A program made the translations under genes and the position numbers. This document shows positions 14,701-58,280 of a stretch of 64,000 bases of DNA, in pieces. Origin of the DNA: Pristiophorus japonicus (taxonomy: Eukaryota); the NCBI RefSeq assembly GCF_044704955.1, contig NC_091995.1, forward strand, positions 8,494,001 through 8,558,000, read 5' to 3'. Under the pieces are notes generated by a model. It did not search any database and had not been told where the DNA came from. It worked only from the letters and a program-made list of their open reading frames with translations. Every line of letters begins with the position of its first letter. Position 1 is the stretch's first letter.

Positions 14701-17700
14701 CGCAAATGTCGCCAGCTATGGCCTGAAAAGAACCCGACATGTAGAACGACAGTGCCGCGATGACTTTGACCTTGATGGACGGTGCAGTACTGATGGTGCT
14801 GGCAGGCTGCAGATCTCCGCTTATGAGCTGGCATACCTCAGTGATAACCTCTTTGTGGAAGCGCAGTCTCCGAAGGCAGGTGGTATCGGGCAAGTCGAGG
14901 TAAGACTGCTTCTCCCTGTACTTGCGGGAGGTGTAACGTCTGGCCCTTCTCATCAGTCTGTCACGTCTTACATTGGGCTCATAATGCTGTGGAGCGTACC
15001 TTCGGCCTTCTCGAGTCTGCAGCATGCAATTGGTCATCAAGAGAGGGTGGGAAAGGACAGGCCCCATTGCAGTAGCTCTCTGTTTTCCACCGATTGGTCA
15101 CAAACAATGAATGTCCCAACGAAGACACCTATTAAGTTCCAATCGCTCACAGTATGGTCAAGATGTTTGTATAGATGTTCATATCAACTCCAACGACCTC
15201 CAGAGAACATCTGAATTTCCTCGAGGTTGAAGCACAGCAGCCTTTTAAAGAATGCGACATGTGATGTAGAACATGGTGTCTATAACGCTGTGATTAGTTT
15301 CGGTTAGTTCCACTTTTTCTGGACGTTTTTTGGGGCGAGTGATATTGTGGGCGATATGTGTGAGGTGGTGAAAGTGACGCTGGGCGATCTCATGGCCGTT
15401 AGTTTCGGCAAATATGATCTTTACGACAAAAAAAGTGGACGGGCGGTATTATTGAATCTTGCCGTTAATTCCGTGCGGAAAGTAACGCTGGCCGATATTT
15501 TGGGTGTTGATTTCGCCCATTCTGATGATTTCGCACAAAAAAAGTGGGCGGGCGGTATTATTTTTTTCCGGCATTACACACATAGGGAAAGTAATGCTCG
15601 GTGATATTTTTCCAAAAAATGCCTGTCAGTTTCCATTTTGTAGCTAAATGGGCGATAAATGGGCATTATACGTCATTTTAGCGGTAAAATGGATGTTAAA
15701 TGAGTGTTAAGCATGCAAAAAAAAGTGGAAAATCTAACCCCATATCCCTTTGTAGATTTTTTGTGACCTCACAATTTGATTTGCCACCCATCTTTGTATC
15801 ATCAGCAAACTTGGCTACATAACTCTCTGTCCCTTCATTCAAGTCATTAATATAGATTGTAAATAGTTGAGGCCCCAGCACCAATCCCTACGGCACCCCA
15901 CTAGTTATTGTTTGCCAACTGGAAAATGACCCATTTATCCCGACTTTCTGTTTTGTGTTAGTTAACCAATCCTATATCCATGCTAATATATTACCCCCAA
16001 CCCCGTGAACTTTTATCTTGTGCAGTAACCTTTTATGTGGCACCTTATCGAATGCCTCCTGGACATCCAAATACACCACATCCACTGGTTACCCCTTATC
16101 CACCCTACTCGTTACATCCTGAAAGAACTCCAACAAATTTTTCAAACATGATTTCCCTTTCATAAAACTATGCTAGCTCTGCTTGATTGAATTATGCTTT
16201 CCAAATATCCTGCTACTGCTTCCTTAATAATGGACTCCAGCATTTTTCCCAGGGACCGAAGTTAAGCTAACTGGTCTATAGTTCCCTGCTTTCTGTCTGC
16301 CTCCTTTTTTAAATAGAGGCGTTACATTTGCGGTTTTCCAATCTGCTGGGACCTCTCCAGAATCCAGGGAATTTTGGTAGGTTACAACCAATGCATCTAC
16401 TATCCACTATGTCTGAGGCCACTTCCTTTAAGACCCGAGGATGAAAGCCATCAGGTCCAGGGGACTTGTCCGCCTTTAGTCTCATTATTTTACTGAGTAC
16501 TACTTCTTTAGTGATAGTGATTGTATTAAGTTCCTGCCTCCTTATAGCCCTCTCTATGTTCACAAATCCCTGAAGGTAGCAGAACAGGTACATAAGGTGG
16601 CTAAGAAGACATGCAGGATACTTTCCTTTATAAGCCGAGGCATAGAATACAAGAGCAGGGGGGTTATGTTTGAACTATATAAAACACTAGTTAGGCCACA
16701 GTTCTGGTTCCCACATTATAGGAAGGATGCGTTTGCACTAATGAGGGTACAGAGGAGATTTATGAGGATGTTTCCTGGACAGGAGAATTTCAGGTATGAG
16801 GAAAGATTGGATAGGCTGGGGTTGTTTTGTTTGGAACAGAGGAGAATGACGGGAGATTTAATTGAGGTGCATAAAATTATGAGGGGCCTGGATAGAATGG
16901 ATAGGAAGGATGTAATTCCCTTAGCAGAAAGGTTATTGATTAAGTAATTGGTAGAAGGATTAGAGGGGAGTTGAGAACTTTTTTCACCCAGATGGTGGTG
17001 GGGGTCTGGAACTCACTGCTTGAAAGGGTGATAGAGGCAGGAAACTCCCATCGTATTTAAAAAGTACTTTGATATGGACTTGAAGTGCCGTAACCTACAA
17101 GGCTATGGACCAAGAGCTGGAAAGTGGGATTAGGCTGGATAGCTTTTTCAGCCGACACAGACACCGGGGGCCAAATGCCCTCCTGTGGTGTCAATTTCTA
17201 TGATAGTAAGATTAATGTTCAGAATGCCCTTTTATTACCCCTACCTATTTATATACACTGTATATAGTGAGACAATGATCTGTCACATTTAGGCAATTAT
17301 TCCAAATTTATTTTCCAGATTCATGATTATTGGAAGAATTAGTAACACTAAAAATGGAATTTTATTTGTTTCCCTTAAATTACCTCCATTAAGATTAAAT
17401 CCTTTGCGACAGTAATATCGCTGATGTTGTTTAAAATGTTATATTTTACCAGAGAGATTCCGTGTGCTTGTAGCAGACGATCCCATCAGAGTCACTGTAG
17501 GTGAAGATATTGTATTAGAATGCCAACTGGTACCAGATATATCGCTGGATAACCTGGAGATTCGATGGTTTACATCAGACTCGGCTTCGCCAGTACATTT
17601 ATACACCGGTGGACAGGATCGACCTGATGTGCAGGACAAAGCTTATCAAGGGAGGACGGAACTATTTAAAGAGGAGTTTCCCTGTGGAAATGCCTCTCTC

Positions 17701-20700
17701 AAACTGCAGAAGGTAAAAGCATCAGATGAAGGGAGCTACACGTGTTTCATTGACTCCGAAACATACCATGCGGAAGCAGTGATAGATCTACAAGTTGGAG
17801 GTTAGTCCCTCGAGTTGGAAACTACTAATGGGTGCTGGGTATAAGACACAATATTCAAGTTCCAGTATTTTTTAAATCATGATTGACAATTAGCAAGCTC
17901 CATGTTATTTGAAAATTAAAACTACAAACAATTTACTGGAAAATTCAAGATTTTTGCTAATAATTCAAACTGCTATTTTTGGCACAGACTGGAAATATAT
18001 ACCAATTAAAATAAGGTCATGTCCCCGAGTGTACAGACAAGACAGGGAAGTGGAAGGTGTAATTGGACTCCACTCACCCAGGAATCGGCCTGGAATTTGA
18101 TCCAGTCAGTGGTAGTCGGGCCGCAGGCAGGCAGTGATGATATTAAGCTCTGCTCGACTATACAGAGATACCAAAGTATAGCGGTACTGCAGGCATAATC
18201 CTTCATAGTTCAGACAACACAGCGCTAATACTCCTGAGTTCAGACAATGCCAGGCCTATACAGCAATTCACTTGTGAGCTCATTCAAGTCTGTAACCCCA
18301 TGAACTGGCATGATGTCACCACTGGAAACCTTTTATCCATGTGTATAGAAAGATGTCATCAGAGGGCATGTACAGAAGGGTAACATCATCGGCCGACTGA
18401 AAACAGGATGTATTCATGGACCTTGAATGGCATTTCTGAGGCATCTCTGCCTCTTTTTGGAAACAATGCAAAATTCCATTGGAAAGGGGGAAGGTGCTTT
18501 GTGTGTCCACAACTTACTGGTGCTAACTTTGAAGAGGTGATGCCAGAAATCCCTGTACTTGTGTGGCCCACAATGCCGGTTTCCTATCAGTATTTGATTG
18601 TGGACAATCAACAAAGTGGGAAATTGCCCAGATATGTCCTGTCCTCAAAAAGCAGGACAAGTCCAACCCGGCCAGTTTCTACCCTATCAGCTTACTTCCA
18701 ATCATCAGTAAACTGATGGAAGGAGTCCTCAACATGAATTCTACAGGTGAGATGTGAGTACCCTTGATAGAAGGCAGCATTCAGCCGAGTGTGGCACCAA
18801 GGAGCCCGAGTAAAACTGAAGTCAATGCAGATAAGCTGGAAACTTTCCTGTGACTGGAGTCATAGATGGTGAGGGACGGAGCTTTTGAAGGACTGTGCAT
18901 GGTAAAAGGAAATGATTGGCAGAAAACGCAAAATCGTCAGTTGCAGAGGGTATCAGAAGAGTCACAGATATAGGTAGGTACAGACTGGACAAGAGTTAAG
19001 GTCAGAGGATATTAGTCTAGTGGGACAGCAGTAAGTAGAATCTACCAAGTCAGTCCTATTTGTGAATATTGGGGAGGAATTGGAAATTGGCTGTGGGTTG
19101 GGGAACAATAAGATTGGAAGCATGGGGTTGGGGGAGGGTTGATTTTGCTCACATTGGGAGATTATGATTTGATGTTTGGTCATGGGGTCATGGTGTGTAG
19201 TTAGATGGGAGTCATCGTCAGAAAATTAATGTTTAGCCTCAGCCTGTCTGAGGCCCTTCCGCCATATAACGTCAGTGCCCTCTTTCCTGGTGTGTTTGGT
19301 ATCTGGAATGGAACAAAAAGCTACAAGTGGAGAGGGAAATAAATTAAAGAAACAGAAACTGTTGATGTCACAGCGTAGTTGTTGATGAAGAGATTGAGTG
19401 AAGGCGGGATGAAGGAGTTTAGAATGCTGGAGACGGGAAAAGTGGTCTGATTCAGATTCACAAGCAGACCCCTGCTGGCTGAGAAAGAAGGCACAGAAAT
19501 GGTGGTCACATCATGCTGTCAATCCGATATTGCCTGTTTATACTATTGGCGAAAGTTAAAATGACCCCACCGATTTTAATACTTGGGTCACTCAATGGAG
19601 GAATAGGTCATCCTATATTAACAATTTAACAGACAAAAATGATTATAGATTGTTGCAATTAGACATTTAACAATAAAAATGAGTATTATTTTTTATTACT
19701 GATTAAATCCTAATTGTAGGGTTTGGACATCGACCTTGGATTCACCTGGAGGAAAACAACAAACAAGGAGTTCGTGTTGTGTGTAAATCAGATGGATGGT
19801 ATCCTGAACCACAGATATGGTGGGTGGATGGAAATGGACAAGAAATGACAGAATGGTCTGAAACAGAATTCATAAAGGACTCCAAAGGCCTTATTGCTGT
19901 CCAGAGTCACATTGATGTCACAAGTGATTCTGTAAACAAGTTTTCATGTTTCATACAAAACCGGTTCTTGCGCAAACAACGAGAGGCCCATATCCAGATA
20001 TCAGGTATGTGAGAGCTGAGAAATCATTTCATTAAAAAAAAAACGAACTTTATTTCTCTCCTGAAGGCACGAACTCAGACTGGGTGTGGATCTACGAGCA
20101 TTGGTTCTCCTGTGGAACATGTCCAAGGGTCAGTTTTTCATACTTGAACCTAGAAAGTTGACAAGCTTGTGGATTATCTGCGGCACAGCAGTTGAGCCTG
20201 ATCAGACCTCACCCAATGTCCATTTGTCTATATTCCAACAGTGGTCACTGGATAGAGATTAGGAGCAAGAACACTTATATTTCCTGCATTTTCTGTTTTT
20301 ATTTCAGATTTTAAGCATCCGCATTATTTTACTTTTAAATTAATATAACTCTTTTTTATCATATTATTTAACAATGTAATGAAGTTCTCATAGAGAAAAT
20401 TACATAGGAACATAAAAACATAAGAAATAGGAGCAGGAGTAGGCCATACGGCCCCTCGAGCCTGCTTCACCGTTTAATGCGATCGGGTCCACTTCCCTGC
20501 CTGCTCTCCATAACCCCTTATTCCCTTATCGGTTAAGAAACTTAAATTTATTCAATGTCCCAGCTTCCACAGCTCTCTGAGGCAGCGAATTCCTCAGATT
20601 TACAACCCTCTGAGAGAAAAAATTCCTCCTCATCTCAGTTTTAAATGGGCGGCCCCTTATTCTAAGATTATACCCCCTAGTTCTTGTCTCCCATATCAGT

Positions 20701-23700: not shown

Positions 23701-26700
23701 AGATCCTCCTTAAAACTCAAAACTCACAAATGTGACAAAGCTTTTGGTCACCTTTCCTCATTTAACTAGTTTGTCCTCACACCACACGCATTAAGAGAGA
23801 AATAGTGTTAATATAGTGCCTTGGAAAGTATTTCTCTTGTTAAAGGCACTACATTAATACAATGTTTCTCTCTCCACAGAAGCTACCTGACCTGCTGAGT
23901 ATTTACAGCATTTTCTGTTTTTATTTCAGATTTCAAGCATCCGCAGTATTTTATATTTATAATAATGTAAGTCTTTGTTATCACTGATGTTATTTACCAA
24001 TATAATTCGGATGGAAGTCAGCACCAGAGATTGCTGCTGAGGATTGATGAAGACCTATGAATAATATTTGGAATGAGAACCTAGTGATGGTTGTACAGTA
24101 TTGGGCTCCTCAAATCCGATACTGATTCTGTTTTTTTTTTACCTTAGATGAGTTTTTCCCTAAAGTCAACGTCTGGCTGGTAATTTTCTGGGTGTTTGCA
24201 GGCCTTGTGATTACGGCTGTTGCTGCTGATATAATGGTCCACAGAAAAGAAGATAAAAAGATTAAAGGTAGGAGCACAAATAATAGTTCAACAAGGGGAT
24301 AAGGGTTTATGGGGAGCGGGCGGAGAAGTGGAGGTGAGTCCATGATCCGATCAGCCAAATGGCGGAGCAGGCTCGAGGGGCCATATGGCCTACTCCTGCT
24401 CCTATTTCTTATGTTCTTAAGTTCGAACATTATTGTGTTAAGAAGTCTATAAAACTTTAAATTTATGTATGTGAATTGAGTTTGAAATCTGTAGTCACAT
24501 TGCAGAGGTATAATAACAATAGAATTATAATTGTAGGAGACTGTAATCATCCAAAAATAAGACCGAGATATGAAAACAATTGGTGAAAAAGTAGAAGTTT
24601 ATTTCAGGGTGTTCAGGAATGATTTCTTAATCAATATGCTGTAATTCCTTGGCACGATATAACTGGCTTTAGTATAGGAAAAGAAAAGTTGACTAAAAAA
24701 ATGCAATTTGTAATAATGTAAAAGGGACCTTGCCCAGATTGCAATGAAAAACAATTGTTAACTTGAACTGTTGGTCAGCATTGGGAAATATTTAAACTGT
24801 GGGTGGGAAGGATATAAATTAATTACATTTCAGTGAGGGTAATCTGTCAAAGCCTGAATGGAGGAATAAGACTGTTGGACTTTGAGCCATTTACTGCCCA
24901 TCCTTATCCGCAATCAAACTGCCCTTCTGTTTGGGGAACTGGATGGTGATCAATGAAGGTGCCCGGACAAATATTTACCTCTCCCTGGCAAAGCTGAACT
25001 CACTGAATCATGAACCATTTGAAATCGGGAGAGTTACACATTTTTAATTTTGGCAGCTAACACGCCCATTATTTACAGCTTTCAGTGGTTAAGTAATGAC
25101 ATCACTTTACATTATCAGAGTCTCAGGAAAGGTTGCTGGTAAATTTGTCCCCCGCCCCAGACATGTACTGGATGCTATTGTAATCGTGCTACATTACAAT
25201 CACATACACACACAGCTAATCTATAACCTGCTGACACATCTACTTTGTGGACAGATACTGTAATGCAGTCTAGCTGTGATCCCCTCTTCTCTCATTGAAA
25301 CAACAGCAACTTGTATTTATATAGCACCTTTTAATTTAGCAAAACATCCCGAGGCGCTTCGCAGGAATGTTATGAACCAAAATTTGACAACAAGCCACAT
25401 ATTAGGACAGGTGAAGGGAGAGGTTTTAAGGAGTGTGTTAAAGAAGGAGAGGCTCAGGGAGGTAATTCCAGAGCCTAGGGCCCAGATAGCAGAAGACATA
25501 GTCACCAGTGGTGGAGCGATTAAAGTTGGGAATGCCCAAGAGGTGGAGGAGCACAGAGATCTCAAAGGGTTATTTATAGGGCTGGAAGAGGTTACGGAGA
25601 TAGGGAGAGGCGAGGCCATGGAGATATTTGAAAACAAAGATGAGAATTTTAAAATCAAGGTATGGCTGGACCGCGAGCCAGAACAGGGTGGTGGATGAAT
25701 GAGAGTTAGTGCGAGTTAGGGTATGGGCAGCAGAGTTTTGGATGAGTTCAAGTTTATGGAAGGAGGAAGACTGGAGGGTCACAGGGGAGCATTAGAAGAG
25801 TCAAGTCTCGAGGTAATGGGCCCAAGTTTCCACAAGAAACAAAACGGGGGCCCCTCCGAGCTGGGCGCCCGTTTTTCGCGCCTAAAACGGCGCCTAAAAA
25901 AATCCTCGGTATTCTCCACCTACTTATAGGTCCTCTGGCCCTCGGCGCAGCCAACACGAGCTGTGGGGGGGGGCGGAGCCAGGTCCCGGCACTGAAAACA
26001 GTGCCGGGACCTCTGCACATACGCGCTACAGTCGGCATGCAAGTGCAGTAGCTCCAGGCGCCGAACTGTGTGGGAGGGGCCCGAAGCACGCAGCCCCTAG
26101 CCCTGGCCCAATGGCCTCACTGGGGCTGCGTGAATAAGGCTCCTCCCATGGCCAGCTCCTGCTTCCTGCCGNNNNNNNNNNNNNNNNNNNNNNNNNNNNN
26201 NNNNNNNNNNNNNNNNNNNNNNNNNNNNNNNNNNNNNNNNNNNNNNNNNNNNNNNNNNNNNNNNNNNNNNNNNNNNNNNNNNNNNNNNNNNNNNNNNNNN
26301 NNNNNNNNNNNNNNNNNNNNNNNNNNNNNNNNNNNNNNNNNNNNNNNNNNNNNNNNNNNNNNNNNNNNNNNNNNNNNNNNNNNNNNNNNNNNNNNNNNNN
26401 NNNNNNNNNNNNNNNNNNNNNNNNNNNNNNNNNNNNNNNNNNNNNNNNNNNNNNNNNNNNNNNNNNNNNNNNNNNNNNNNNNNNNNNNNNNNNNNNNNNN
26501 NNNNNNNNNNNNNNNNNNNNNNNNNNNNNNNNNNNNNNNNNNNNNNNNNNNNNNNNNNNNNNNNNNNNNNNNNNNNNNNNNNNNNNNNNNNNNNNNNNNN
26601 NNNNNNNNNNNNNNNNNNNNNNNNNACAGCTGCAGAATTCTTCCTGGCTGAAGCACTTTCACACAGGTAGGAAGATGGTTTATTTAATATTTTCTTGGCT

Positions 26701-38700: not shown

Positions 38701-41700
38701 CAAAATACTGCGGTACAGAGGGATCTGGGGTCCTTGCACATGAAATACAAAAAGTTAGCATGCAGGTACAGCAAGTAATTAGGAAGGCAAATGGAATGTT
38801 GGCCTTGAGGCTCGGATGCAGAAGGTGCAGTCACGTGTGACTGTTCAACCAATCAGGTACAGTATTCTCAATAGCAATGAGAACTCTATATCTATGAGTT
38901 CTCGTTGCTATTAATTGAGAAAAAAACAAACACAATAACACCAATTAAAAAATAAAAAACACACCTCACATAATTAAAATTAATTGAAATTAAAGTTAAT
39001 AAATATCTTGGAGAAAAAAAATATTTCCGAGTTTTTACAAAGTTTTTTTAATTATGGTTCAAAATAAATTTAACGTAGTGGACAGGGTTTCTAAAAATAA
39101 AATGTGTATTTTTAATTTAATTTTTTCTGTTTTAAGTGTGTTTTAAGACTCTTACACCTGTAACAATAGGCTGTACGCCTGCTTTTATCCGGCGCAAGAG
39201 TTTTGAGGACATTTGCCGGGCAAGATATGGGTAAATACCGCAATCTTGCTCTTGCAAATGTCCTCGCTCCCGAGATGTGGAGGATCTGTCAAGCTGGAGC
39301 TTGGCGGATCGGAAAAGCCGGTTTTCAGCGCATGCGCATTGTGTGCTGAAAACTGGGTTTTCCGGTATTTTTCCGGGTCCGTAGAAACTCCGTACGGACC
39401 CGGGGAGGCCGGAATGTCTGGGCCATTGAGAGGGCTGGACAAGTTGGATGCAGAGAGGATATTTCCACTCATAGGGGAGACTAGTCTCAGATTAAGGGGT
39501 CGCCCATTTAAAACTAAGATGAGGAGGAATTTCTTCTGAGGGTTGTAAATCTGTGGAATTCTCTGCCCCAGAGAGCTGTGGAGGCTGGGTCATTGAATAT
39601 ATTTAAGGTGGAGATAGACAGATTTTTGAGCATTAAGGGAATAAAGTGTTATGGGGAGCGGGCAGGGAAGTGGAACTGAGTCCAGGATCAGATCAGCCAT
39701 GATCTTATTAAATGGCGGAGCAGGCTCGAGGGGCCAAATGACCGACTGCTAGTCCTATTTCTTATGTTCTTATGCTGACTGAGTTTCGTTTCTGCATGCT
39801 CTCGGCGACAAGACTTGAGGTGCTCCGCGCCCTCCCGGAGCCTCTTCCTCCACTGAGGGCAGTCTTGGGCCAATGACTCTCCAGTGTCAGTGGGGATGTT
39901 GCACTTTATCAAGGAGGCTTTGAGGGTGTCCTTGAAACGTTTCCTCTGCCCAGCTGCGGCTCGCTTGCCATGTAGGAGTTCCGAGTAGAGCGCTTGCTTT
40001 GGGAGTCTCATGTCAGGCATGCGAACAATGTGGCCTGCCCAGTGGAGCTGGTCGAGTGTGGTCAATGCTTCGATGCTGGAGATGTTGGCCTGATCGAGAA
40101 CACTGACGTTGGTGCGTCTGTCCTCCCAGTGGATTTGCAGAATCTTGCGGAGACAGTGCTGGTGGTACTTCTCCAGCGATTTGAGGTGTCTACTGTATAT
40201 GGTCCATGTCTCTGAGCCATATAGGAGCTGTAGAATTTCTCACACTAACACATCCCTGTGTTCTTGATTTTCAGAACTACAGCTGTTTTGCACTTTAGAA
40301 GGTAAGCAATTTAAGAATCATTTCAGGGCTCTGATTTAATAACTGAATAAAAACATTAGTTTCATTGCATGGGAATCCAGGAATTTTGAAGATAGAGTTC
40401 TATAATCCCATTTATTTTCCTTGAAAAGCATACACCAATGGTCTTGACCATTTTACATTTCTGTGAACTTCACACCTTGTTTAGTTAGAACAACACCCTG
40501 CTGGTTGGTGCAATGTGTTAGGCATTTAACTTTCACCTCTGGGCTTGGGTGGAGTGTTGGGTTAGGCACTGACCTTTCATTTTTGAAACCCGTTGGTGCA
40601 TTGGATTAGACACTAAATATTGGACCATCAACTTTCCTTTGGTGTTTTTCTCCACATATGCCGCCTAGCTTACTCCAACTGTCCTTTCACCTTTGAGACT
40701 GGGGAGTGCAGTGGGTCAGATACTGTCCTTTCAGCTTTGGAACCCCATGGTGCAATGGGTTAGATACTGTCCTTTCCTTTTTGCTATCAGTATTTAATTA
40801 TTCTTTGCTTTCTGTTCTTGGAAACTACACTTCACGTGTGGGGGCAGAATACTGAGTGAAACACAATAATGGGGTAAAAATTGTGGTTGGAGGTTTCCCA
40901 CGAGCAGATGACTCTGACCTGCAAAAAATCTGCAAATTTACCTGGTGGTTCGTAGATTCACGCTCCTGAGCCTCTCCGGGTACCCACGAGTAGACGCCTG
41001 CATATCTCGAGATCACATGGGCTTACCCAACCAATAACAGAAGGGAATCCCCTCCCCATTCACACTGATGGGGTTTCCTTGTTCCGAACTCCCATAAGTG
41101 TGAATGGGGATCACTTAAAAATACACAAACACATGAAATAAGTTTTTAAACTCCTACACTGGTTAAAGCAGGTCTTGTGCCTACTTTTACCAGACGTATG
41201 AATTTCAAGGACAGTTGCTGGGCAGAATTTGGGCAAATAGCCCAACTCTCCGCCCTTAAATTCCCTTTACTTTTGGATTCGTACGATCTGGCGAGGATTC
41301 TTGACAGATCGCAAGTTGTGAGTTTCAGCGAATACGCAGTGAATGTCTAAACCTGGAACTTGTGGGGCCCCTACAAATTCAGCCCCATTGTTCCACATCA
41401 ATCAAATCTGTAAATGTATTTCATAATTACACCAGAAATGTTCTCTCACTTTATACTTCTCTGCTTATTTATTTCTTCACTGAGGGAGGGGATAGAGAAT
41501 TTTTTCTGATTGGTTAACCGCCAGAAGACAGCTTATCTTGAGCAGAACGGGACCCTCCCACCTAATTTCCTCTTCCTTCCCCAGTGACCCATTCAAAAAT
41601 AGAGATAGGCCTCTCACTGCAGCCACTATTTGACTGTCAGTCCAGGCTGCATGTTGTCACGGGGATCTGCTCTAAAACCAGCTAGAAACAGGTGAAAGTG

Positions 41701-44700
41701 ACAGCAGTATTATGGTTGGGTTGAGCTGTCAGGTTCTCAGCTCCCAACTTGTGATTGGAGCAGAGTTGGAATGTAATAATAGTGGGCTGATCACATGAGA
41801 TGTAAATGCTGTAAACCCTTCCCAATATTCCAGTCTCTGTGTTCAATCTGCAGCTCAGTCTTTTCATTGCATTGAATGGGATGATTATTTTGAGATGAAC
41901 AGAACATTTGATCTGTGTCGTTAATCGTTGGATTGTAACCCAGCATAGTGGTGCAGACTGAGTGAGGGAATTCCTTGTTCCTATTCTCAGTCTGTGAAGA
42001 TACAGCTCATAGTTTTAACTGGCAGTCAGCAAGAAGTGTAAGCTGTGAAATATTTTTGTTTCGACAGGATATGATGAAGTGGATATAGATTATGGTAAGT
42101 ACAGAACCATTATACAATTCAATACAACTGTCCCCATATTTATAATACAAATTGAAGAACAGTTCCTGAACACTTTACTGAAACAACTCATCAGAATACA
42201 TCTTCTGAACAAATATTTATTTTGTTCGAGCTGCTTTACTCCAGCTGATGTTTTTTCCAATCCCAACCCTGAGGGACTCCCTTCGCCACGACCCCGAGCG
42301 GCGCCCCCCGACCCCGAGGCACTCTCGTCCCCCCGACCCCGAGGCACTCTCGTCCCCCCGACCCCGAGGCACTCTCTTTTCCCCCCGACCCCAAGTGACA
42401 ATCTCTTCCCCCCCCTTACCCCTCCCCCCGACCTCGGGTGACTCCCTCCCCTTGACCCTGAGTGACTCTCTCTCCTCCCGGCCCCCAGTGACTCTCTCCC
42501 CCCCGACCCCCAGTGACTCCCTCCCCCCGACCTCCCCAGTGACTCTCTCCCCCCGACCCCGAGTGACTCCCTCCCCCGAACCCCAGTGACTCTCAGCCCC
42601 CCCGACCCCGAGTGTATCATCATCCGACACCCGGTGACCTCCCCCCCGATCCCGTGACTCTCGTCCCTCCCACCCCCGAGTGAATCATCGCCCCCCCCGA
42701 CTCCGAGTTACTCTCTCCCCCCGACCCCGAGGCACTCTCGTCCCCCCGACCCCGAGGCACTCTCTTTTCCCCCCGACCCCAAGTGACACTCTCTCCCCCG
42801 ACCCCGAGTGACTCCCTTCCCCCCCTTACCCCTCCCCCCGACCTCGGGTGACTCCCTCCCCTTGACCCTGAGTGATTCACTTCCCCCCGGCCCCCAGTGA
42901 CTCTCTCCCCGCCGGCCCCCAGTGACTCTGCCCCCGACCCCCAGTGACTCTGCCCCCGACCCCCAGTGACACTCTGCCCCCGACCCCCAGTGACACTCTG
43001 CCCCCGACCCCCAGTGACACTCTGCCCCCGACCCCCAGTGACACTCTGCCCCCGACCCCCAGTGACACTCTGCCCCCGACCCCCAGTGACTCTCTTCCCC
43101 CCCTGACCCCGAGCGACTCCCTCATCCCGACCCCGAGTGACTCTCTCCCCCCGACCCCTAGCGACTCTCTCCCCCCGACCCCGAGCGACTCTCCCCCCGA
43201 CCCCGAGCGACTCTCTCTCCCCCTACCCCGAGCGACTCCCTCCCCCCGACCCCGAGTGACTCCCTCCCCCCGACCCCCAGTGACTCTCTGCCCCCGACCC
43301 CCAGTGACTCTCAGACCCCCCGACCCCAAGCGACTCCTCCTCCGACACCCGGTGACCTCCCCCCGATTGCGTGACTCTCGTCCGCCCCACCCCCGAGTGA
43401 ATCATCGCCCCCCGACCCCGAGTGACTCCCTCCCCCCGACCCCCAGTTACTCTCTCCCCCCCGACCCCCAGTTACTCTCTCCCCCTGACCCCAAGTGAGT
43501 CTTTGCCCGCCATCCCGAGTGACCCTCTCTTCCGACCCCGAGTGACTCTCTCTCCCCGACCCCGAGTGACTCCCTCACCCCGACCCCCAGTGACTCCCTC
43601 TCCCCCGGACCCCCAGTGACTCCCTCTCCCCCGGACCCCCAGTGACTCCCTCTCCCCCGGACCCCCAGTGACTCCCTCTCCCCCGGACCCCCAGTGACTC
43701 TCTCCCCCCGACCCCCAGTGACTCTCTCACCCCCGACCCCCAGTGACTCTCTCCCCCCGACCCCCAGTGACTCTCTCCCCCCGACCCCCAGTGACTCTCT
43801 CACCCCCGACCCCCAGTGACTCTCTCCCCCCGACCCCCAGTGACTCTCTCCCCCCGACCCCCAGTGACTCTCTCCTCCCGACCCCCAGTGACTCTCTCCC
43901 CCCGACCCCCAGTGACTCTCTTCCCCCCGACCCCCAGTGACTCTCTCCCCCCGACCCCCAGTGACTCTCTCCCCCCGACCCCCAGTGACTCTCTCCTCCC
44001 GACCCCCAGTGACTCTCTCCCCCCGACCCCCAGTGACTCTCTCCCCCCGACCCCCAGTGACTCTCTCCTCCCGACCCCCAGTGACTCTCTGCCCCCGAGC
44101 CCCAGTGACTCTCTGCCCCCGACCCCCAGTGACTCTCTGCCCCCGACCCCCAGTGACTCTCTGCCCCCGACCCCCAGTGACTCTCTCCTCCCGACCCCCA
44201 GTGACTCTCTGCCCCCGACCCCCAGTGACTCTCTTCCCCGACCCCCAGTGACTCTCTTCCCCGACCCCCAGTGACTCTCAGCCCCCGACCCCCAGTGACT
44301 CTCTCCTCCCGACCCCCAGTGACTCTCTCCCCCCGACCCCCAGTGACTCTCTCCCCCGACCCCCAGTGACTCTCTCCTCCCGACCCCCAGTGACTCTCTG
44401 CCCCCGAGCCCCAGTGACTCTCTGCCCCCGACCCCCAGTGACTCTCTGCCCCCGACCCCCAGTGACTCTCTGCCCCCGACCCCCAGTGACTCTCAGCCCC
44501 CGACCCCCAGTGACTCTCTCCCCCCGACCCCCAGTGACTCTCTCCCCCCGACCCCCAGTGACTCTCTCCCCCCGACCCCCAGTGACTCTCTCCCCCCGAC
44601 CCCCAGTGACTCTCTCCCCCCGACCCCCAGTGACTCTCAGACCCCCCGACCCCGAGTGTATCTCTCCCCGGATCCCGAGCGACTCCTCCTCCGACACCCG

Positions 44701-47700
44701 GTGACCTCCCCCCGATTGCGTGACTCTCGTCCGCCCCACCCCCGAGTGAATCATCGCCCCCCAACCCCGAGTGACTCCCTCTCCTTGACCCTGAGTGATT
44801 CTCTCCCCCGACACCCAGTGACTCTCTCCCCCCGACCGAGTGACTCCCTCCCCCCGACCCCGAGTGACTCCCTCCCCCCGACCCCCAGTGACTCTCTCCC
44901 CCCGACCCCCAGTGACTCTCTCCCCGGATCCCGAGCGACTCCTCCTCTGACACCCAGTGACCTCCCCCCGATCCCGTGACTCTCGTCCCCCCCCAACCCC
45001 GAGTGAATCATCGCCCGCCGACTCCGAGTTACTCTCTGCCCCCGACCCCCAGTGAGTCTTTGCCCCGCCATCCCGAGTGACCCTCTCTTCCGACCCCGAG
45101 TGACTCTCTCTCCCCGACCCCGAGAGACTCCCTCCCCCCGACCCCGAGTGACTCCCTCCCCCCGACCCCGAGTGACTCCCTCCCCCCGACCCCGAGTGAC
45201 TCCCTCCCCCCGACCCCGAGTGACTCCCTCCCCCCGACCCCGGGTGACTCCCTCCCCCCGACCCCGGGTGACTCCCTCCCACCGACCCCGAGTGACTCCC
45301 TCCCCCCGACCCCGAGTGACTCCCTCCCCCCGACCCCGAGTGACTCCCTCCCCCCCGACCCCGGGTGACTCCCTCCCCCCAACCCCGAGTGACTCCCTCC
45401 CACCGACCCCGAGTGACTCCCTCCCCCCGACCCCGAGTGACTCCCTCCGCCCGACCCCGAGTGACTCCCTCCGCCCGACCCCGAGTGACTCCCTCCGCCC
45501 CGACCACGAGTGACTCCCTCCCCCCGACCCCGAGTGACTCCCTCCCCGCGACCCCGAGTGACTCCCTCCCCCGACCCCGAGTGACTCCCTCCCCCGACCC
45601 CGAGTGACTCCCTCCCCCCAGTGACTCTCTTCCCCACCCGACCCCCAGTGACTCTCTGCCCCCGACCCCCAGTGACTCTCTGCCCCCGACCCCCAGTGAC
45701 TCTCTGCCCCCGACCCCCAGTGACTCGCTCTCCCCGACCCCCAGTGACTCTCTGCCCCCGACCCCCAGTGACTCCCTCCCCCGACCCCGAGTGACTCCCT
45801 CCCCCCGACCCTGAGTGACTCCCTCCCCCCGACACTGAGTGACTCCCACCCCCCAGTGACTCTCTTCCCCCCCCGACCCCGTGACTCTCTGCCCCCGACC
45901 CCCAGTGACTCCCTCCCCCCGACCCCCAGTGACTCTCTCCCTCCCCCCGACCCCGAGTGACTCCCTCCCCCCGACCCCGAGTGACTCCCTCCCCCCGACC
46001 CCGGGTGACTCTCTCCCCCCGACCCCGAGCGACTCTCTCCCCCCGACCCCGAGCGACTCTCTCCCCCCGACCCCGAGCGACTCTCTCCCCCCCGACCCCG
46101 AGCGACTCTCTCCCCCCGACCCCGAGCGACTCTCTCCCCCCGACCCCGAGCGACTCTCTCCCCCCGACCCCGAGCGACTCTCTCCCCCCGACCCCGAGTG
46201 ACTCCTCCTCCGACACCCGGTGACCTCCCCCCGATCCCGTGACTTTCGTCCCCCCCACCCCCGAGTGAATCATCGCCACCCGACCCCGAGTGACTCCCTC
46301 CCCCCGACCCCCAGTTACTCTCTCCCCCTGACCCCAAGTGAGTCTTTGCCCGCCATCCCGAGTGACTTCCTCACCCCGACCCCGAGTGACTTCCTCACCC
46401 CGACCCCGAGTGACTTCCTCACCCCGACCCCGAGTGACTCCCTCACCCCGACCCCGAGTGACTCCCTCCCCCCGAACCCCCCAGTGACTCTCTCCCCCCG
46501 ACCCCCAGTGACTCTCTCCCCCCGACCCCCAGTGACTCTCTCCCCCCGACCCCCAGTGACTCTCTCCCCCCGACCCCCAGTGACTCTCTCCCCCCGACCC
46601 CCAGTGACTCTCTCCCCCCGACCCCCAGTGACTCTCTACCCCCGACCCCCAGTGACTCTCTACCCCCGACCCCCAGTGACTCTCTCCCCTCGACCCCCAG
46701 TGACTCTTTCTCCCCGACCCCCAGTGACTCCCTCACCCCGACCCCCAGTGACTCCCTCACCCCGACCCCCAGTAACTCTCTACCCCCGACCCCGAGTGAC
46801 TCCCTCCCCCCGACCCTGAGTGACTCCCTCCCCCCAGTGACTCTCTTCCCCCCCCGACCCCCAGTGACTCTCTGCCCCCGACCCCCAGTGACTCTCTGCC
46901 CCCGACCCCCAGTGACTCTCTGCCCCCGACCCCCAGTGACTCTCTACCCCCGACCCCCAGTGACTCTCTCCCCTCGACCCTGAGTGACTCCCTCCCCCCG
47001 ACCCTGAGTGACTCCCTCCCCCCAGTGACTCTCTTCCCCCCCGACCCCCAGTGACTCTCTGCCCCCGACCCCCAGTGACTCTCTACCCCCGACCCCCAGT
47101 GACTCTCTCCCCCCGACCCTGAGTGACTCCCTCCCCCCGACCCTGAGTGACTCCCTCCCCCCGACCCTGAGTGACTCCCTCCCCCCAGTGACTCTCTTCC
47201 CCCCCGACCCCCAGTGACTCTCTGCCCCCGACCCCCAGTGACTCTCTTCCCCCCCGACCCCCAGTGACTCTCTTCCCCCCCGACCCCCAGTGACTCTCTG
47301 CCCCCGACCCCCAGTGACTCTCTGCCCCCGACCCCCAGTGACTCTCTGCCCCCGACCCCCAGTGACTCTCTGCCCCCGACCCCCAGTGACTCTCTGCCCC
47401 CGACCCCCAGTGACTCTCTGCCCCCGACCCCCAGTGACTCTCTCCCCTCGACCCTGAGTGACTCTCTCTGCCCCCGACCCCGTGACTCTCTGCCCCCGAC
47501 CCCCAGTGACTCTCTGCCCCCGACCCCCAGTGACTCTCTGCCCCCGACCCCCAGTGACTCTCTCCCCTCGACCCTGAGTGACTCCCTCCCCCCGACCCTG
47601 AGTGACTCCCTCCCCCCAGTGACTCTCTTCCCCCCCGACCCCCAGTGACTCTCTGCCCCCGACCCCCAGTGACTCTCTGCCCCCGACCCCCAGTGACTCT

Positions 47701-49802
47701 CTGCCCCCGACCCCCAGTGACTCTCTGCCCCCGACCCCCAGTGACTCTCTGCCCCCGACCCCCAGTGACTCTCTGCCCCCGACCCCCAGTGACTCTCTGC
47801 CCCCGACCCCCAGTGACTCTCTGCCCCCGACCCCCAGTGACTCTCTGCCCCCGACCCCCAGTGACTCTCTGCCCCCGACCCCCAGTGACTCTCTGCCCCC
47901 GACCCCCAGTGACTCTCTGCCCCCGACCCCCAGTGACTCTCTGCCCCCGACCCCCAGTGACTCTCTGCCCCCGACCCCCAGTGACTCTCTGCCCCCGACC
48001 CCCAGTGACTCTCTGCCCCCGACCCCCAGTGACTCTCTGCCCCCGACCCCCAGTGACTCTCTGCCCCCGACCCCCAGTGACTCTCTGCCCCCGACCCCCA
48101 GTGACTCTCTGCCCCCGACCCCCAGTGACTCTCTGCCCCCGACCCCCAGTGACTCTCTGCCCCCGACCCCCAGTGACTCTCTGCCCCCGACCCCCAGTGA
48201 CTCTCTGCCCCCGACCCCCAGTGACTCTCTGCCCCCGACCCCCAGTGACTCTCTGCCCCCGACCCCCAGTGACTCTCTGCCCCCGACTCCCAGTGACTCT
48301 CTGCCCCCGACCCCCAGTGACTCTCTGCCCCCGACCCCCAGTGACTCCCTGCCCCCGACCCCCAGTGACTCTCTGCCCCCGACCCCCAGTGACTCTCTGC
48401 CCCCGACCCCCAGTGACTCTCTGCCCCCGACCCCCAGTGACTCTCTACCCCCGACCCCCAGTGACTCTCTCCCCTCGACCCTGAGTGACTCCCTCCCCCC
48501 GACCCTGAGTGACTCCCTCCCCCCAGTGACTCTCTTCCCCCCCGACCCCCAGTGACTCTCTGCCCCCGACCCCCAGTGACTCTCTGCCCCCGACCCCCAG
48601 TGACTCTCTGCCCCCGACCCCCAGTGACTCTCTGCCCCCGACCCCCAGTGACTCTCTGCCCCCGACCCCCAGTGACTCTCTGCCCCCGACCCCCAGTGAC
48701 TCTCTGCCCCCGACCCCCAGTGACTCTCTGCCCCCGACCCCCAGTGACTCTCTCCCCTCGACCCTGAGTGACTCTCTTCCCCCCCGACCCCGTGACTCTC
48801 TGCCCCCGACCCCGTGACTCTCTGCCCCCGACCCCCAGTGACTCTCTGCCCCCGACCCCCAGTGACTCTCTGCCCCCGACCCCCAGTGACTCTCTGCCCC
48901 CGACCCCCAGTGACTCTCTACCCCCGACCCCCAGTGACTCTCTCCCCTCGACCCTGAGTGACTCTCTTCCCCCCCGACCCCGTGACTCTCTGCCCCCGAC
49001 CCCCAGTGACTCTCTGCCCCCGACCCCCAGTGACTCTCTGCCCCCGACCCCCAGTGACTCTCGGTCCCCGACCCCCAGTGACTCTCGGTCCCCGACCCCC
49101 AGTGAGTCTTTGCCCCTCCATCCTGAGTGACCCTCTCTTCCGACCCCGAGTGACTCCCTCCCCCCGACCCCGTGACCTCCCCCCGATCCCATGTGACCTC
49201 CCCCCCCGATCCCGTGACTCTCTCCCCAACTCCGGGTGAATCTCTCTAACTCTCTGCTTTTTCTCCCAGTCTCTGTGACCCTGGATGTGGAAACAGCGAA
49301 TCCATGTCTCGAGGTGTCTGAGGATCTGAAGAGTGTGAGATGGACCGGGACCTGGAGGAATCCCCCTGACACTGAGAAGAGGTTTACACACTGGGCCTGT
49401 GTGCTGGGATCGGAGGGATTCACATCGGGGAGACATTACTGGGAGGTGGAGGTGGCGGGGAATGAGGAGTGGAGTCTGGGAGTAGCCGCAGAGTCTGTGG
49501 GGAGGAAGGATTGGGTCACACTGAGCCCGGAGAATGGATTGTGGACCATCGAGCGGTACAATGATCAGTTTAATGTAAACTCCTCCCCTCCATCCCCTCT
49601 CCCTGCCGGTCAGATCCCCGGGAAGGTGGGAGTTTATCTCAGTTACGAGTCCGGGACAGTTACATTTTACAGCGCGGACACCAAGTCCCATCTCCACACC
49701 TTCACTGGGAATAAATTCACGGAGAAACTTTATCCTTTCTTCTGGACTGAGGATCTGAACAAGTGGCTGAGAATCTGCTCCGGTTTCAATCCGGGTCTGT
49801 GA
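5662..49802 (+). CDS. Butyrophilin-family protein (SP-IgV-IgC-TM-B30.2), 7 coding exons, 465 aa: join(5662..5719,17453..17800,19720..20004,24148..24267,40275..40301,42068..42094,49270..49802)
   Basis: Exons assembled by hand. Every intron is GT..AG and phase 1. Lengths 58+348+285+120+27+27+533=1398 nt give one open frame ending in TGA at 49800-49802. The domain order is the defining butyrophilin architecture. No one-to-one orthologue can be assigned. Confidence 0.9.
5985..8975 (+). mobile_element. CR1 LINE, decayed (end of ORF1 esterase, APE, RT, 3' tail)
   Basis: Fragments [41 protein letters not shown]; many stops and deletions. Confidence 0.93.
9220..10190 (+). mobile_element. CR1 LINE, 5'-truncated (RT C-terminus and tail)
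   Basis: [24 protein letters not shown], tail TTTCTATGTTTCTA; preceded by another CR1 tail fragment at ~9130-9220. Confidence 0.92.
10280..10530 (-). mobile_element. Deu-domain SINE, degenerate
   Basis: Reverse-complement similarity to 2530-2780. Confidence 0.65.
10545..11850 (+). mobile_element. CR1 LINE, second subfamily, 5'-truncated
   Basis: RT fragments, [33 protein letters not shown]; tail (ATTCTATG)n; interrupted at 11403-11537. Confidence 0.9.
11403..11537. mobile_element. 135-bp solo-LTR-like insertion
   Basis: TG...CA termini (TGATAC.../...ATGTCA), 5-bp TSD GAGGG at 11398-11402 and 11538-11542; the host CR1 reads through once it is removed. Confidence 0.7.
12848..15740 (-). mobile_element. 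Harbinger DNA transposon 1 (decayed; transposase on -, remnant of second gene on +)
   Basis: TIRs GGGCTAGATTTT / GGGTTAGATTTT (rc), 3-bp TSD TAT/CAT, subterminal GGGCG/CGCCC repeats, HARBI1-like ORFs. Confidence 0.9.
13951..15067 (-). pseudogene. Harbinger (HARBI1-like DDE) transposase pseudogene
   Basis: YLDL...[48 protein letters not shown]; frameshift near 14595 and FPK joined directly to MRTP, so the GAIDCTH catalytic motif is deleted. Confidence 0.9.
16555..17205 (+). mobile_element. CR1 LINE 3' fragment
   Basis: [10 protein letters not shown]...[11 protein letters not shown]; similar to 11030-11840. Confidence 0.88.
17453..17800 (+). CDS. BTN-like exon: IgV domain (B7/butyrophilin V-set)
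   Basis: ttttaccag acceptor; (E)[23 protein letters not shown]...LEIRWF...VHLY..GQD...[12 protein letters not shown]...[17 protein letters not shown]...LQVG; donor G|gttagt; 348 nt. Confidence 0.96.
18590..18865 (+). mobile_element. Non-LTR retrotransposon RT fragment (clade uncertain)
   Basis: [36 protein letters not shown] resembles the W..A...P..KK....NYRPISL RT N-terminal motif. Confidence 0.7.
19720..20004 (+). CDS. BTN-like exon: IgC domain (CD80-like C-set)
   Basis: ttgtag acceptor; (G)[39 protein letters not shown]...[21 protein letters not shown]; the C-x-S-x-GWYPEP motif is typical of BTN IgC; donor G|gtatgt. Confidence 0.95.
20402..22675 (-). mobile_element. CR1 LINE, decayed
   Basis: [41 protein letters not shown]; tail (AACATAAG)n at the left end. 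Confidence 0.93.
22787..23517. mobile_element. GC/CpG-rich Harbinger-type MITE
   Basis: Termini ..GGTGGAAATTGCCC / GGGCAATTTCGGCCCC, flanked by TTT; sharp GC-rich island in AT-rich intron. Confidence 0.7.
24148..24267 (+). CDS. BTN-like exon: transmembrane segment and stop-transfer
   Basis: Poly-T tract plus accttag; (D)[39 protein letters not shown]; the FFP..W motif follows IgC in BTNs; donor G|gtagga; 120 nt. Confidence 0.92.
24293..24420 (+). mobile_element. CR1 3'-tail fragment just after the TM exon
   Basis: GGAGCAGGCTCGAGGGGCCATATGGCCTACTCCTGCTCCTATTTCTTATGTTCTTA matches the other CR1 tails. Confidence 0.8.
25818..27118. mobile_element. Young Harbinger-type MITE spanning the assembly gap
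   Basis: Perfect 17-bp TIR GGGCCCAAGTTTCCACA / TGTGGAAACTTGGGCCC; perfect TSD AAT (25815-25817, 27119-27121). Confidence 0.9.
26172..26625. other. Assembly gap (454 N)
   Basis: Run of N. Confidence 1.
27133..29510 (+). mobile_element. CR1 LINE (ORF2 with internal deletions) inserted in L2
   Basis: [29 protein letters not shown] motifs, tail; same subfamily as 50609-54825. Confidence 0.93.
31151..32040 (+). pseudogene. Harbinger transposase pseudogene
   Basis: [69 protein letters not shown] across shifted frames; large internal deletion near 31455. Confidence 0.88.
32250..34361 (-). pseudogene. Harbinger Myb/SANT-like (trihelix) DNA-binding protein pseudogene, intron-containing
   Basis: ATG at 34361: [26 protein letters not shown]...(frameshift)LWREVAQHV...[17 protein letters not shown]|gtgagt (exon ends 34124); second exon ~33540-33678 (RERAR...LTDEEERM) ending at gtatgt; third acidic low-complexity exon from ~33381. 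Confidence 0.75.
35806..36560 (-). mobile_element. SINE-like insertion, possibly RTE-related, with a GC-rich repetitive block
   Basis: Cleanly interrupts the CR1; the AGGCAGTCCCT..GTCGATGATGAC end resembles RTE-type 3' ends from memory; duplicated TGATGGTGTTTTCTC at 36477 and 36538. Confidence 0.45.
36773..37150 (-). mobile_element. CR1 3' fragment nested in the older CR1
   Basis: Nearly identical to 20415-20770. Confidence 0.85.
38230..39772 (+). mobile_element. CR1 LINE fragments (38230-38805, 39428-39772) flanking a MITE
   Basis: [41 protein letters not shown], tail CTTATGTTCTTATG. Confidence 0.88.
38806..39424. mobile_element. Harbinger-type MITE, 5'-deleted, same family as 688-1401
   Basis: Colinear similarity with ~800-1401 including the right TIR GGAATGTCTGGGCC followed by ATT. 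Confidence 0.8.
39773..40230 (-). mobile_element. RTE (BovB-like) LINE 3' fragment
   Basis: [28 protein letters not shown]...[14 protein letters not shown], the typical RTE C-terminus. Confidence 0.9.
40275..40301 (+). CDS. BTN-like juxtamembrane micro-exon A, (E)LQLFCTLE
   Basis: ttcttgattttcag acceptor, 27 nt, donor AG|gtaagc, symmetric phase 1; lies in unique sequence between TEs; 21-27-nt exons are typical of this position in BTNs. Confidence 0.75.
40500..40785 (+). repeat. Degenerate tandem array of tRNA-derived SINE heads (~40-45 bp, about 6 units)
   Basis: Repeats of TGGTGCAATGGGTTAGRYACTGWCCTTTCA(C); A-box-like start and CTTTCAC loop. Confidence 0.55.
40871..41386. mobile_element. 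Harbinger-type MITE, diverged relative of 688-1401
   Basis: TIRs GGGGTAAAAATTGTGG / GGGGCTGAATTTGTAG (rc), flanks AAT/ATT, same internal layout (CCAAT then hairpin). Confidence 0.7.
42068..42094 (+). CDS. BTN-like juxtamembrane micro-exon B, (G)YDEVDIDY
   Basis: tttttgtttcgacag acceptor, 27 nt, consensus donor G|gtaagt, symmetric phase 1. Confidence 0.8.
42260..49235. repeat. ~7-kb C-rich minisatellite, 24-bp unit AGTGACTCTCTGCCCCCGACCCCC, with higher-order modules
   Basis: Fills nearly all of intron 42095-49269; perfect core ~47640-48285; variant units elsewhere. Confidence 0.98.
49270..49802 (+). CDS. BTN-like terminal exon: B30.2 (PRY-SPRY) domain
   Basis: Branch point ctctaac, pyrimidine tract and cccag acceptor; [23 protein letters not shown]...RF...[19 protein letters not shown]...W.LGVA...[14 protein letters not shown]...LHTF...LYPFF; TGA at 49800. 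Confidence 0.97.
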
Positions 49803-49989
49803 AAGGGGCGGGGCCTCGGGCCGGCTCACGTCATCCATGACCTCACAATGACTTGACCCCGCGCGGATAGGGTCAGGAGCAGAGGTTAGGGGTCGGGAGT
49901 TAGAAAATGTAATTTCCAAATGATGCATTGTAAAATCCCAATGAGACTGTAAATACAACCCATACAAATATAAAATGTCAGGAGACTTA

Positions 49990-49995
49990 AATAAA
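49990..49995 (+). terminator. Candidate polyadenylation signal AATAAA (alternative ATTAAA at 50056-50061)
   Basis: Canonical hexamer ~190 nt after the stop codon. Confidence 0.6.
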
Positions 49996-50193
49996 AAGTA
50001 AAAGCCGACAGCAAGTCCATCCCAGCCCTTTCTCATCACTGCCCCGCTCCTTTGTATTAAAAAGCAGGTCTAAGTTGTGCTCTGACAATGAGCACATTCC
50101 TCAGGTATTCAGCACCACGCACCATTGGTGATGGGAAATACACAAACTGTCTCTCCTCAAAAACACCGGGAGTTTGGTAATCTTCGGTTTAAA

Positions 50194-53604: not shown

Positions 53605-53681
53605 CTCCTTTCTGTCTTTTGTTTTTGCCTCCTTTTTGTTTCCCTCTATCTCCCTGCATTGGTTCCCATCCCCCTGCCATA

Positions 53682-58069: not shown

Positions 58070-58280
58070 ATAACCAATCATATTGTGCAAAATCATTCTA
58101 TCCAATCACAATCTAGCAAAAAATTCTACCCAATCATAGTCTAACAAAAAATTCTACCAATCATATTCCTGCAAAGCATTTTACCCAATTACGTTCCAGA
58201 AAAAATTCTACCCAATCAGATTCCAGCAACAAAATCTACCCAATCATGTTCCAGCAATATATTCTACCCAATCACATTCC
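58070..58280. repeat. Degenerate ~21-bp tandem repeat TTCTACCCAATCAYATTCCAGCAAAA (CCAAT-rich)
   Basis: About 9 units, each with CCAAT. Confidence 0.8.

Follow-up and report, generated by a model that had tools for sequence, protein, structure and literature searches.

Several described systems resemble the locus analysed here, as far as the consulted portions of the cited articles go. In the NLR-B30.2 genes of zebrafish, the B30.2 exon is converted across groups whose other domains remain distinct, one group has escaped, and conversion has been suggested to disseminate variants of recognition and recombine them; this conversion occurs within one family, and the sharing of the domain between NLRs and finTRIMs is treated as ancestral shuffling (bioRxiv 10.1101/027151). 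The B30.2 tree of finTRIMs and NLRs likewise unites two gene families with variation at binding surfaces, although the part of that article at hand describes a teleost shuffling event rather than continual homogenisation and does not involve butyrophilins (BTNs) (PMC2657112). The squamate harbiTRIM locus, presented with a focus on the antiviral function of TRIMs, groups TRIMs and BTNs with orphan PRY-SPRY genes in a repeat-rich setting, and its PRY-SPRY domains recombine recurrently (PMC12262214). Within the BTNs themselves, a single exon is homogenised among the BTN3A paralogues of hominoids, the IgV exon and only within BTN3 (PMC6790196), while human BTN3A1 and BTN2A1, which act in phosphoantigen sensing, have the same architecture as the gene described below (PMC7348870). 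The only relevant point in the portions consulted of the duck TRIM and spiny dogfish genome papers was a remark on BTN-TRIM similarity.

Here we analysed a 64-kb window, the whole stretch of sawshark DNA under study, and consider it probable (roughly 0.8) that its terminal B30.2 exon belongs to a pool exchanged by ectopic recombination among same-species A33-like TRIMs and two BTN lineages. Unlike the zebrafish case, such exchange would pass from one family to another, between membrane BTNs and cytosolic TRIMs, and would be repeated lineage by lineage, and in contrast to BTN3A it would involve the B30.2 exon, together with TRIMs. Compared with harbiTRIM, it concerns another vertebrate class and a pool known from sequence alone, and the available part of that source shows no species-wise replacement of the B30.2 domain of BTNs whose ectodomain tree is conserved (PMC12262214). 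Concerted evolution of B30.2 is already known; what would be new is that, throughout elasmobranchs, it crosses from BTNs to TRIMs. The literature search turned up no article that describes homogenisation of B30.2 between BTNs and TRIMs of cartilaginous fish, nor any on how the shark MHC is organised, so an earlier mention is possible.

Gene architecture and exon composition

The window carries an intact BTN open reading frame of 465 aa on the forward strand, with canonical GT-AG splice sites and one stop codon (49800-49802), which joins a signal peptide, IgV, IgC and transmembrane (TM) domains, short juxtamembrane exons and B30.2, an exon layout identical to that of the orthologous BTN gene models. 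The signal-peptide exon starts at the ATG and ends in phase 1 (5662..5719; tblastn matches from four shark BTNs), and is followed by the IgV exon of ectodomain clade A (17453..17800; Pfam V-set), with 77-88% identity to the IgV of named shark BTNs, the IgC exon (19720..20004; Pfam C2-set_3, butyrophilin IgC) and the TM exon (24148..24267; 69-87% identity to clade-A orthologues). Two micro-exons of 27 nt follow, one whose peptide is identical in orthologues (40275..40301) and one specific to clade A (42068..42094), the last exon outside the sharing. The terminal coding exon (49270..49802; Pfam PRY+SPRY), a putative member of the lineage-wide BTN/TRIM pool, is preceded by a branch-point-like CTCTAAC (49244-49250), a pyrimidine tract and an AG acceptor (together 49244..49269), and is followed by a 3' UTR (49803..49995) with AATAAA at 49990. 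In translation, the segment 49244..49269 also weakly resembled ray TRIM models that retain an intron. A first-pass annotation had described the terminal exon as self-contained and phase 1, with its own branch point, stop and polyadenylation signal; these elements are in place, but they do not set it apart, since all coding introns of the gene are phase 1 and a single B30.2 exon is the general rule in the part of the source consulted (PMC2657112). No TRIM or other B30.2 remnant was found in the 64-kb window.

The GC content of the B30.2 exon (53.8%) exceeded that of the IgC (42.5%), TM (40.0%), IgV (45.7%) and signal (37.9%) exons, which bears out an earlier estimate by partial hand count. GC3 was 113/177 (64%) in the B30.2 exon against 109/288 (38%) (p = 7e-8), and GC at four-fold sites was 56/89 against 44/118 (p = 4e-4).

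The minisatellite in the last intron

The last intron, 7175 nt long, is filled to about 97% by a C-rich 24-mer minisatellite (42260..49243), for which TRF reported a core at 42304-49227 with period 24, 290.2 copies, 85% matches and a score of 7396. Degenerate units with 77-79% identity to internal units begin at about 42260, where GC content rises from 31.7% (42096-42259) to 70.1%, and at the 3' edge the TRF core ends 42 nt before the acceptor while unit-like sequence continues to the branch-point-like motif, so that both the abrupt switch in composition and the near contact of repeat and acceptor noted at first pass were confirmed. A 16-mer core of the array matched 253 times in the window, where 0.88 matches would be expected, and all but one of the 200 matches listed lay inside the array. 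The G-rich strand, which is the template strand, held 134 G4-like motifs and the other strand none, and the terminal motifs of the array were found again five times inside it. With head-to-tail units in the 10-60 nt range and interspersed variants on a single haplotype, the array is a GC-rich minisatellite (VNTR); a megablast search for higher-order blocks gave nothing usable. The 5' region of the same gene contains a second array, of an unrelated GC-rich 29-mer, thus arrays of this type are not unusual at this locus.

Looking for the repeat in other collections gave negative results, from searches of limited power. The 24-mer was absent from metagenome contigs, as was the exon-start motif, and from viral contigs, collections in which shark intron DNA is scarce or absent. 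The translated array start matched none of 1704 protein candidates, the best 150 of 722 matches of the translated pure array to 50% representatives had neither a BTN domain nor the exact unit peptide and are low-complexity noise, and no repeat-derived peptide motif occurred in 152 BTN/TRIM proteins.

Conflict between the ectodomain and B30.2 trees

Trees, matches and residue comparisons were made at the protein level from gene models, dropping domains that covered <150 aa and isoform duplicates and keeping at most four single-domain TRIMs per species, taken by id order. The TRIMs are the best 120 of 1944 matches to the window's own B30.2 domain, so that the comparison of the window with sawshark TRIMs is partly circular, whereas other lineages are unaffected.

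The ectodomain tree (42 rows) resolved three BTN clades spanning sharks and rays (support 99/93, 99/93 and 99/99), and by this tree the Ig-defined clades A, B and C are old and common to both groups. In the B30.2 tree, clades A, which holds the window gene, and C come apart into clusters that are each specific to one lineage and also contain A33-like TRIMs, the type to which the peptide had been likened at first pass and with which the database matches agree. Among the B30.2 domains of 37 BTNs, the window grouped with the clade-C protein P0075 (99/94), at 99% identity over 134 framework columns, while their IgV domains share 47% identity. AU tests rejected clade A (p = 0.0017) and clade C (p = 2.3e-5) in the B30.2 tree and the window-P0075 grouping in the ectodomain tree (p = 8e-4), whereas clade B, which serves as an internal control, was not rejected in the B30.2 tree (p = 0.38); a split of B30.2 into BTNs and TRIMs among 48 rows was also rejected (p = 9.3e-4). 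The window, P0075 and four sawshark TRIMs cluster together (99/96), and BTN and TRIM domains are also mixed in lamniform, dasyatid, Rhinoraja and galeomorph groups. This mixing remained when 42 hypervariable columns were dropped and a mixture model was applied, although support for the sawshark cluster fell to 85/74 with one sawshark TRIM outside. The sawshark TRIMs form one lineage clade in a TRIM N-terminal tree (111 rows), therefore clustering among TRIMs can be explained by expansion, and only the placement of the BTNs is informative.

The B30.2 tree thus conflicts with the rest of the gene and clusters by lineage across gene groups, as in concerted evolution, and the anticipated departure from the IgV/IgC tree was found, the exon grouping with same-lineage TRIMs and a distant BTN paralogue. 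The polarity first suggested, a TRIM exon grafted onto a BTN, is probably wrong or unproven, since the pooled exon is sister to the clade-B BTN B30.2 (100/100); its original donor may have been a butyrophilin rather than a TRIM.

Lineage-wise sharing of the B30.2 exon

With TRIMs represented by the best 120 of 1944 matches, the nearest B30.2 came from the same lineage for 14 of 17 clade-A and all 11 clade-C BTNs (25/28 together) and for 0/9 in clade B; the three clade-A exceptions were sevengill and Mustelus, whose pool members are absent from the sample, and one zebra shark tie. At lineage-diagnostic sites, which were set from TRIMs alone and overlap between comparisons, BTNs of clades A and C carried the own-lineage residue 699 times, that of another lineage 31 times and neither 50 times, against 52, 61 and 69 in clade B, and the window gene had the own-lineage residue at 49/49.

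Moreover, A and C paralogues of horn shark have lineage-specific C-terminal tails in common, as do those of cloudy catshark and of basking shark, and in the catshark and the basking shark these tails differ from those of the TRIMs sampled. When the first ~60 nt of the window's 3' UTR are translated in shifted frames, they resemble the C-terminal tails that BTNs and TRIMs have in other sharks. Judged by these comparisons, sharing starts at the exon acceptor and appears to extend beyond the stop codon.

In a hand count over nine species other than the sawshark, 58 of 62 TRIM-type matches, drawn from the best 120 of 1944, lay on a contig as long as the species' BTN contig. Clade-B genes appear to lie on the same contigs yet are not homogenised, hence linkage would not be sufficient.

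Within the 15-row sawshark pool, a PHI-like test gave p = 0.002 (k = 3) and 0.019 (k = 5) and was not significant at k = 1 (p = 0.09); 100 of 176 B30.2 columns were invariant and 12 had at least four states, and variability profiles correlated across lineages (rho 0.50 and 0.55). Two sawshark clade-C copies differed at 29/289 ectodomain and 15/177 B30.2 positions (p = 0.63), with no sign of faster B30.2 turnover in this pair, unlike horn shark clade A, where identities were 94-96% in the ectodomain and 74-80% in B30.2. Pool-hypervariable positions 40-42 and 81 align to W350/H351/Y352 and W391 of BTN3A1, by numbering hand-counted from the P0075 alignment, and the position of H351 is Trp41 in the window domain and variable in the pool, so that the BTN3A-type His351 is lacking (compared with the part of PMC7348870 consulted). 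The window sequence gave no evidence of phosphoantigen binding by this BTN.

Discussion

At the protein level, exchange of the B30.2 exon is strongly supported, and a continual process in each lineage matches the data better than one graft. The route would be gene conversion and/or unequal crossover between linked genes, relying on the homology of the exon itself with its acceptor and proximal UTR, and GC-biased conversion would give rise to the high GC3. Exchange would homogenise the framework while a few surface positions stay hypervariable, and BTNs and TRIMs would draw on one repertoire of predicted ligand-binding faces. A far-reaching version, in which a BTN-born B30.2 exon was captured by A33-like TRIMs and then flowed in both directions between TRIMs and BTNs through an acceptor-linked minisatellite handle, as a germline library of shared sensors whose TRIM-selected specificity is displayed inside-out to T cells, is decidedly doubtful.

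Compatible with exchange, but assigning it another cause, is the idea that a minisatellite common upstream of many BTN/TRIM B30.2 exons acts as homology seed or break hotspot. The array adjoins the branch point, meiotic breaks have been tied to minisatellite instability (PMC7615360, in the part consulted), and when 190 upstream segments were compared with the end of the window's intron, the top two were ray TRIM models that retain an intron (scores 35 and 32). Of these two, the one from Mobula also matched the array itself better than any other segment (score 40), which hints at a unit-like motif ahead of ray TRIM acceptors. A score of 35 was reached by 0/1322 window nulls and 3/1500 shuffles and a score of 32 by 7/1303 and 58/1500. 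However, these matches are weak and uncorrected for the 190 tests, the exon alone supplies near-identity over 0.5 kb, the repeat turned up in none of the proteins and contigs searched, albeit in collections where shark intron DNA is scarce or absent, and the 29-mer array shows that such arrays are no rarity in this gene. A shared seed is accordingly unlikely, and most likely the minisatellite arose where sequence next to the acceptor expanded locally, as a by-product of recombination or, at most, something that promotes it.

Several RefSeq models are fusions of adjacent genes (P0003, P0066, P0071 and P0083), and the join in the window crosses a long repeat, its junction known from the assembly, as expected if a BTN ectodomain had been joined in silico, here over the 7-kb repeat, to the last exon of a neighbouring TRIM; such a chimera is nevertheless very unlikely, as the window has no TRIM/B30.2 remnant and an intron of 7.2 kb, the pattern is seen again when assemblies from many other species are examined, and in the catshark and the basking shark BTN-A has tails in common with BTN-C that differ from those of the TRIMs sampled. 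Domain shuffling in gnathostomes has been given as the origin of BTNs in the consulted part of PMC11788884, and the exon type is common to TRIMs, both in keeping with the idea that a TRIM B30.2 was grafted once, long ago, onto a BTN and that the domains evolved independently from then on, but this reading is largely refuted, because it requires the BTN B30.2 monophyly that the AU tests reject, and the starred branches force at least eight changes of BTN/TRIM label. Convergent protein selection could make same-species domains alike without DNA exchange if BTNs and TRIMs bind shared partners or pathogens, as they may; it has next to no plausibility given the shared frame-shifted tails and UTR-derived peptides, the conservative framework changes common lineage-wide, the near-identical framework in BTNs with 47% IgV identity, and the raised GC at four-fold sites.

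The B30.2 domains of mammalian BTNs are intracellular sensors that license gamma-delta T cells, those of TRIMs recognise viral targets, and sharks and rays are the oldest living lineage with T cells. If exchange is true, a single, continually reshuffled pool of predicted sensor domains would serve both a membrane receptor and ubiquitin ligases of the cytosol, and the sensing side of butyrophilins would be polymorphic and coupled to TRIM arms races. Orthology calls from B30.2 or from whole-protein BLAST names would then be unreliable in sharks, while the unconverted clade B would provide a built-in control for what starts and stops cross-family conversion.

Organization of the butyrophilin gene and its surroundings

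The window holds a single protein-coding host gene, a butyrophilin (BTN) on the + strand surrounded by LINE and DNA-transposon debris, with a signal exon (5662-5719), IgV (17453-17800), IgC (19720-20004) and transmembrane (TM, 24148-24267) exons, two micro-exons of 27 nt each (40275-40301 and 42068-42094) and a B30.2 exon (49270-49802). Splicing these exons in a script gave a 465-aa ORF with all junctions GT-AG and phase 1, and Pfam confirmed V-set, butyrophilin IgC, PRY and SPRY domains. Besides, a candidate non-coding first exon lies at 2036-2161 (AG acceptor near 2033, GTGAG donor near 2162), and a second GC-rich minisatellite (3302-4230; 29-mer, 28.7 copies, CpG o/e 1.05), 5' of the signal exon and unrelated in unit to the 24-mer discussed below, is probably located in the first intron. 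An assembly gap of 454 N (26173-26626) falls between the TM exon and the first micro-exon, where no exon is required judging by orthologues. Just 3' of the polyA signal is a near full-length CR1-like LINE (50804-54634, - strand; endonuclease matched by Pfam, ORF1 GDSL-like and weak), and small tandem arrays occur 3' of the gene at 58073-58280 (28-mer) and 62543-62695 (17-mer).

Probable exchange of B30.2 exons between butyrophilins and TRIMs

The IgV search retrieved 41 proteins from 190 candidates, every one shark or ray butyrophilin-like (best 88%). Among the top 120 of 1944 B30.2 matches, from which the TRIMs compared below were taken, the closest single-domain matches were from Pristiophorus japonicus: a BTN at 92%, yet with IgV identity of just 47%, and next A33/NF7-like TRIMs (84-89%). 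By contrast, B30.2 identity was 71-80% in BTNs that are 77-88% identical to the window gene in IgV. Three sawshark TRIMs (P0084-P0086) have additional coiled-coil exons preceding the same pooled B30.2, and by sequence are a third architecture drawing on the pool. In the whale and zebra shark clade-B models P0031 and P0032, a second, pool-type B30.2 lies downstream, either an orphan exon or an adjacent gene fused by annotation.

The IgV+IgC tree (42 rows) resolved clades A (with the window gene), B and C, each including sharks and rays, whereas in B30.2 trees A and C intermixed and regrouped by lineage (window gene plus P0075, a sawshark clade-C BTN, 99/94; horn shark A+C 99/95; lamniform A+C 100/95). 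For B30.2, AU tests rejected monophyly of A (p=0.0017) and of C (p=2.3e-5) but not of B (p=0.38); for the ectodomain, they rejected a window+P0075 clade (p=8e-4). With 30 TRIMs added, the window gene and P0075 grouped with four sawshark TRIMs (99/96), white shark BTN with TRIM (99/92) and stingray BTN with TRIM (96/90), and a BTN/TRIM split was rejected (p=9.3e-4). When 42 hypervariable columns were left out and a mixture model was applied, BTN/TRIM mixing persisted with at least 6 forced changes, and support for the sawshark cluster fell to 85/74. The best B30.2 match came from the own lineage for 14/17 A, 11/11 C and 0/9 B genes; the TRIMs were picked by likeness to the window B30.2, which inflates the window's own result and not those of other lineages. 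At lineage-diagnostic sites between TRIM pools, A/C BTNs carried the own-lineage state 699 times, the other 31 times and neither 50 times, against 52, 61 and 69 for clade-B BTNs.

In the sawshark pool (15 rows), 100/176 columns were invariant and 12 had at least 4 states, and a PHI-like test gave p=0.09 (k=1), 0.002 (k=3) and 0.019 (k=5). Variable sites were correlated between lineages and included positions aligned to BTN3A1 W350/H351/Y352/W391. Across 9 species, 58/62 TRIM-type matches lay on a contig of equal size to that species' BTN contig, as did clade-B genes. GC was 53.8% in the B30.2 exon and 38-46% in the other long exons, GC3 was 113/177 against 109/288 in the rest of the BTN (p=7e-8), and four-fold sites gave 56/89 against 44/118 (p=4e-4). 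GC-biased conversion is an established cause of raised GC, and the raised GC3 of this exon would stem from it.

Extent of the probable exchange tract and possible role of the minisatellite

Micro-exons were clade-specific all the way to the B30.2 junction, indicating that the coding tract of exchange begins at the acceptor. The tract likely extends beyond the stop codon: read in shifted frames, the window UTR resembles by eye the tails that BTNs and TRIMs carry in lamniforms and catshark, and each of two sawshark tail types is present in both families.

The last intron (7175 nt) is nearly all a C-rich 24-mer array (42304-49227; TRF, 290 copies, 85% matches), with 253 core matches against 0.88 expected by chance and GC rising from 31.7% ahead of the array to 70.1% inside. 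These counts, together with exon GC, bear out the first-pass annotation's description of the array and B30.2 exon. Its suggestion that the array is a shared seed of the exchange appears unlikely, and we consider the array a by-product or incidental (probability about 0.8). The terminal motifs recur five times within the array and unit-like sequence extends as far as the branch point, which fits local amplification. In favor of a seed, the window intron end has weak matches in two ray TRIM models that retain an intron, one of which also matches the array; this hints that the unit may derive from a motif common to pool acceptors but does not extend to shared arrays. Indirect searches for the repeat elsewhere (metagenome and viral contigs, and translated against proteins, with little or no shark intron DNA) were blank. 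The BTN template strand is the G-rich strand of the array; in the R-loop arrangement of switch regions the G-rich strand is placed the other way round.

Known systems and origin of the pooled exon

The probable shark BTN/TRIM exchange works like the cross-group B30.2 conversion of zebrafish NLR-B30.2 genes (10.1101/027151) and like the squamate harbiTRIM locus, which has BTNs among its genes (PMC12262214). The latter is Harbinger-linked, and in the window two broken intronic Harbinger-type transposase remnants (13954-15097, - strand; 31145-32028, + strand; Pfam DDE_Tnp_4) co-occur with the BTN. A limited literature search, with one central review outside it, returned no report of such exchange for cartilaginous fish, nor of lineage-by-lineage BTN-TRIM homogenization with an unconverted control clade.

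The pooled B30.2 was sister of the clade-B BTN B30.2 (100/100, branch 0.81, with the outgroup not cleanly resolved). A different B30.2 is carried by a second type of TRIM, whose N-termini share 69% identity with those of pool TRIMs, and also by the chimaera TRIM and one clade-C BTN. A horn shark clade-C BTN (P0002) and a sawfish model (P0071) share an older TRIM-like type (100/99), which may represent clade C as it was before capture. On the simplest reading of these sequences, at near even odds, BTN was the original donor: the exon would have arisen in the A/B butyrophilin ancestor and then invaded TRIMs and clade C, although B30.2 may instead have moved early from TRIM to BTN. Judging from copy number, present-day flow probably runs mostly from many TRIMs to few BTNs.
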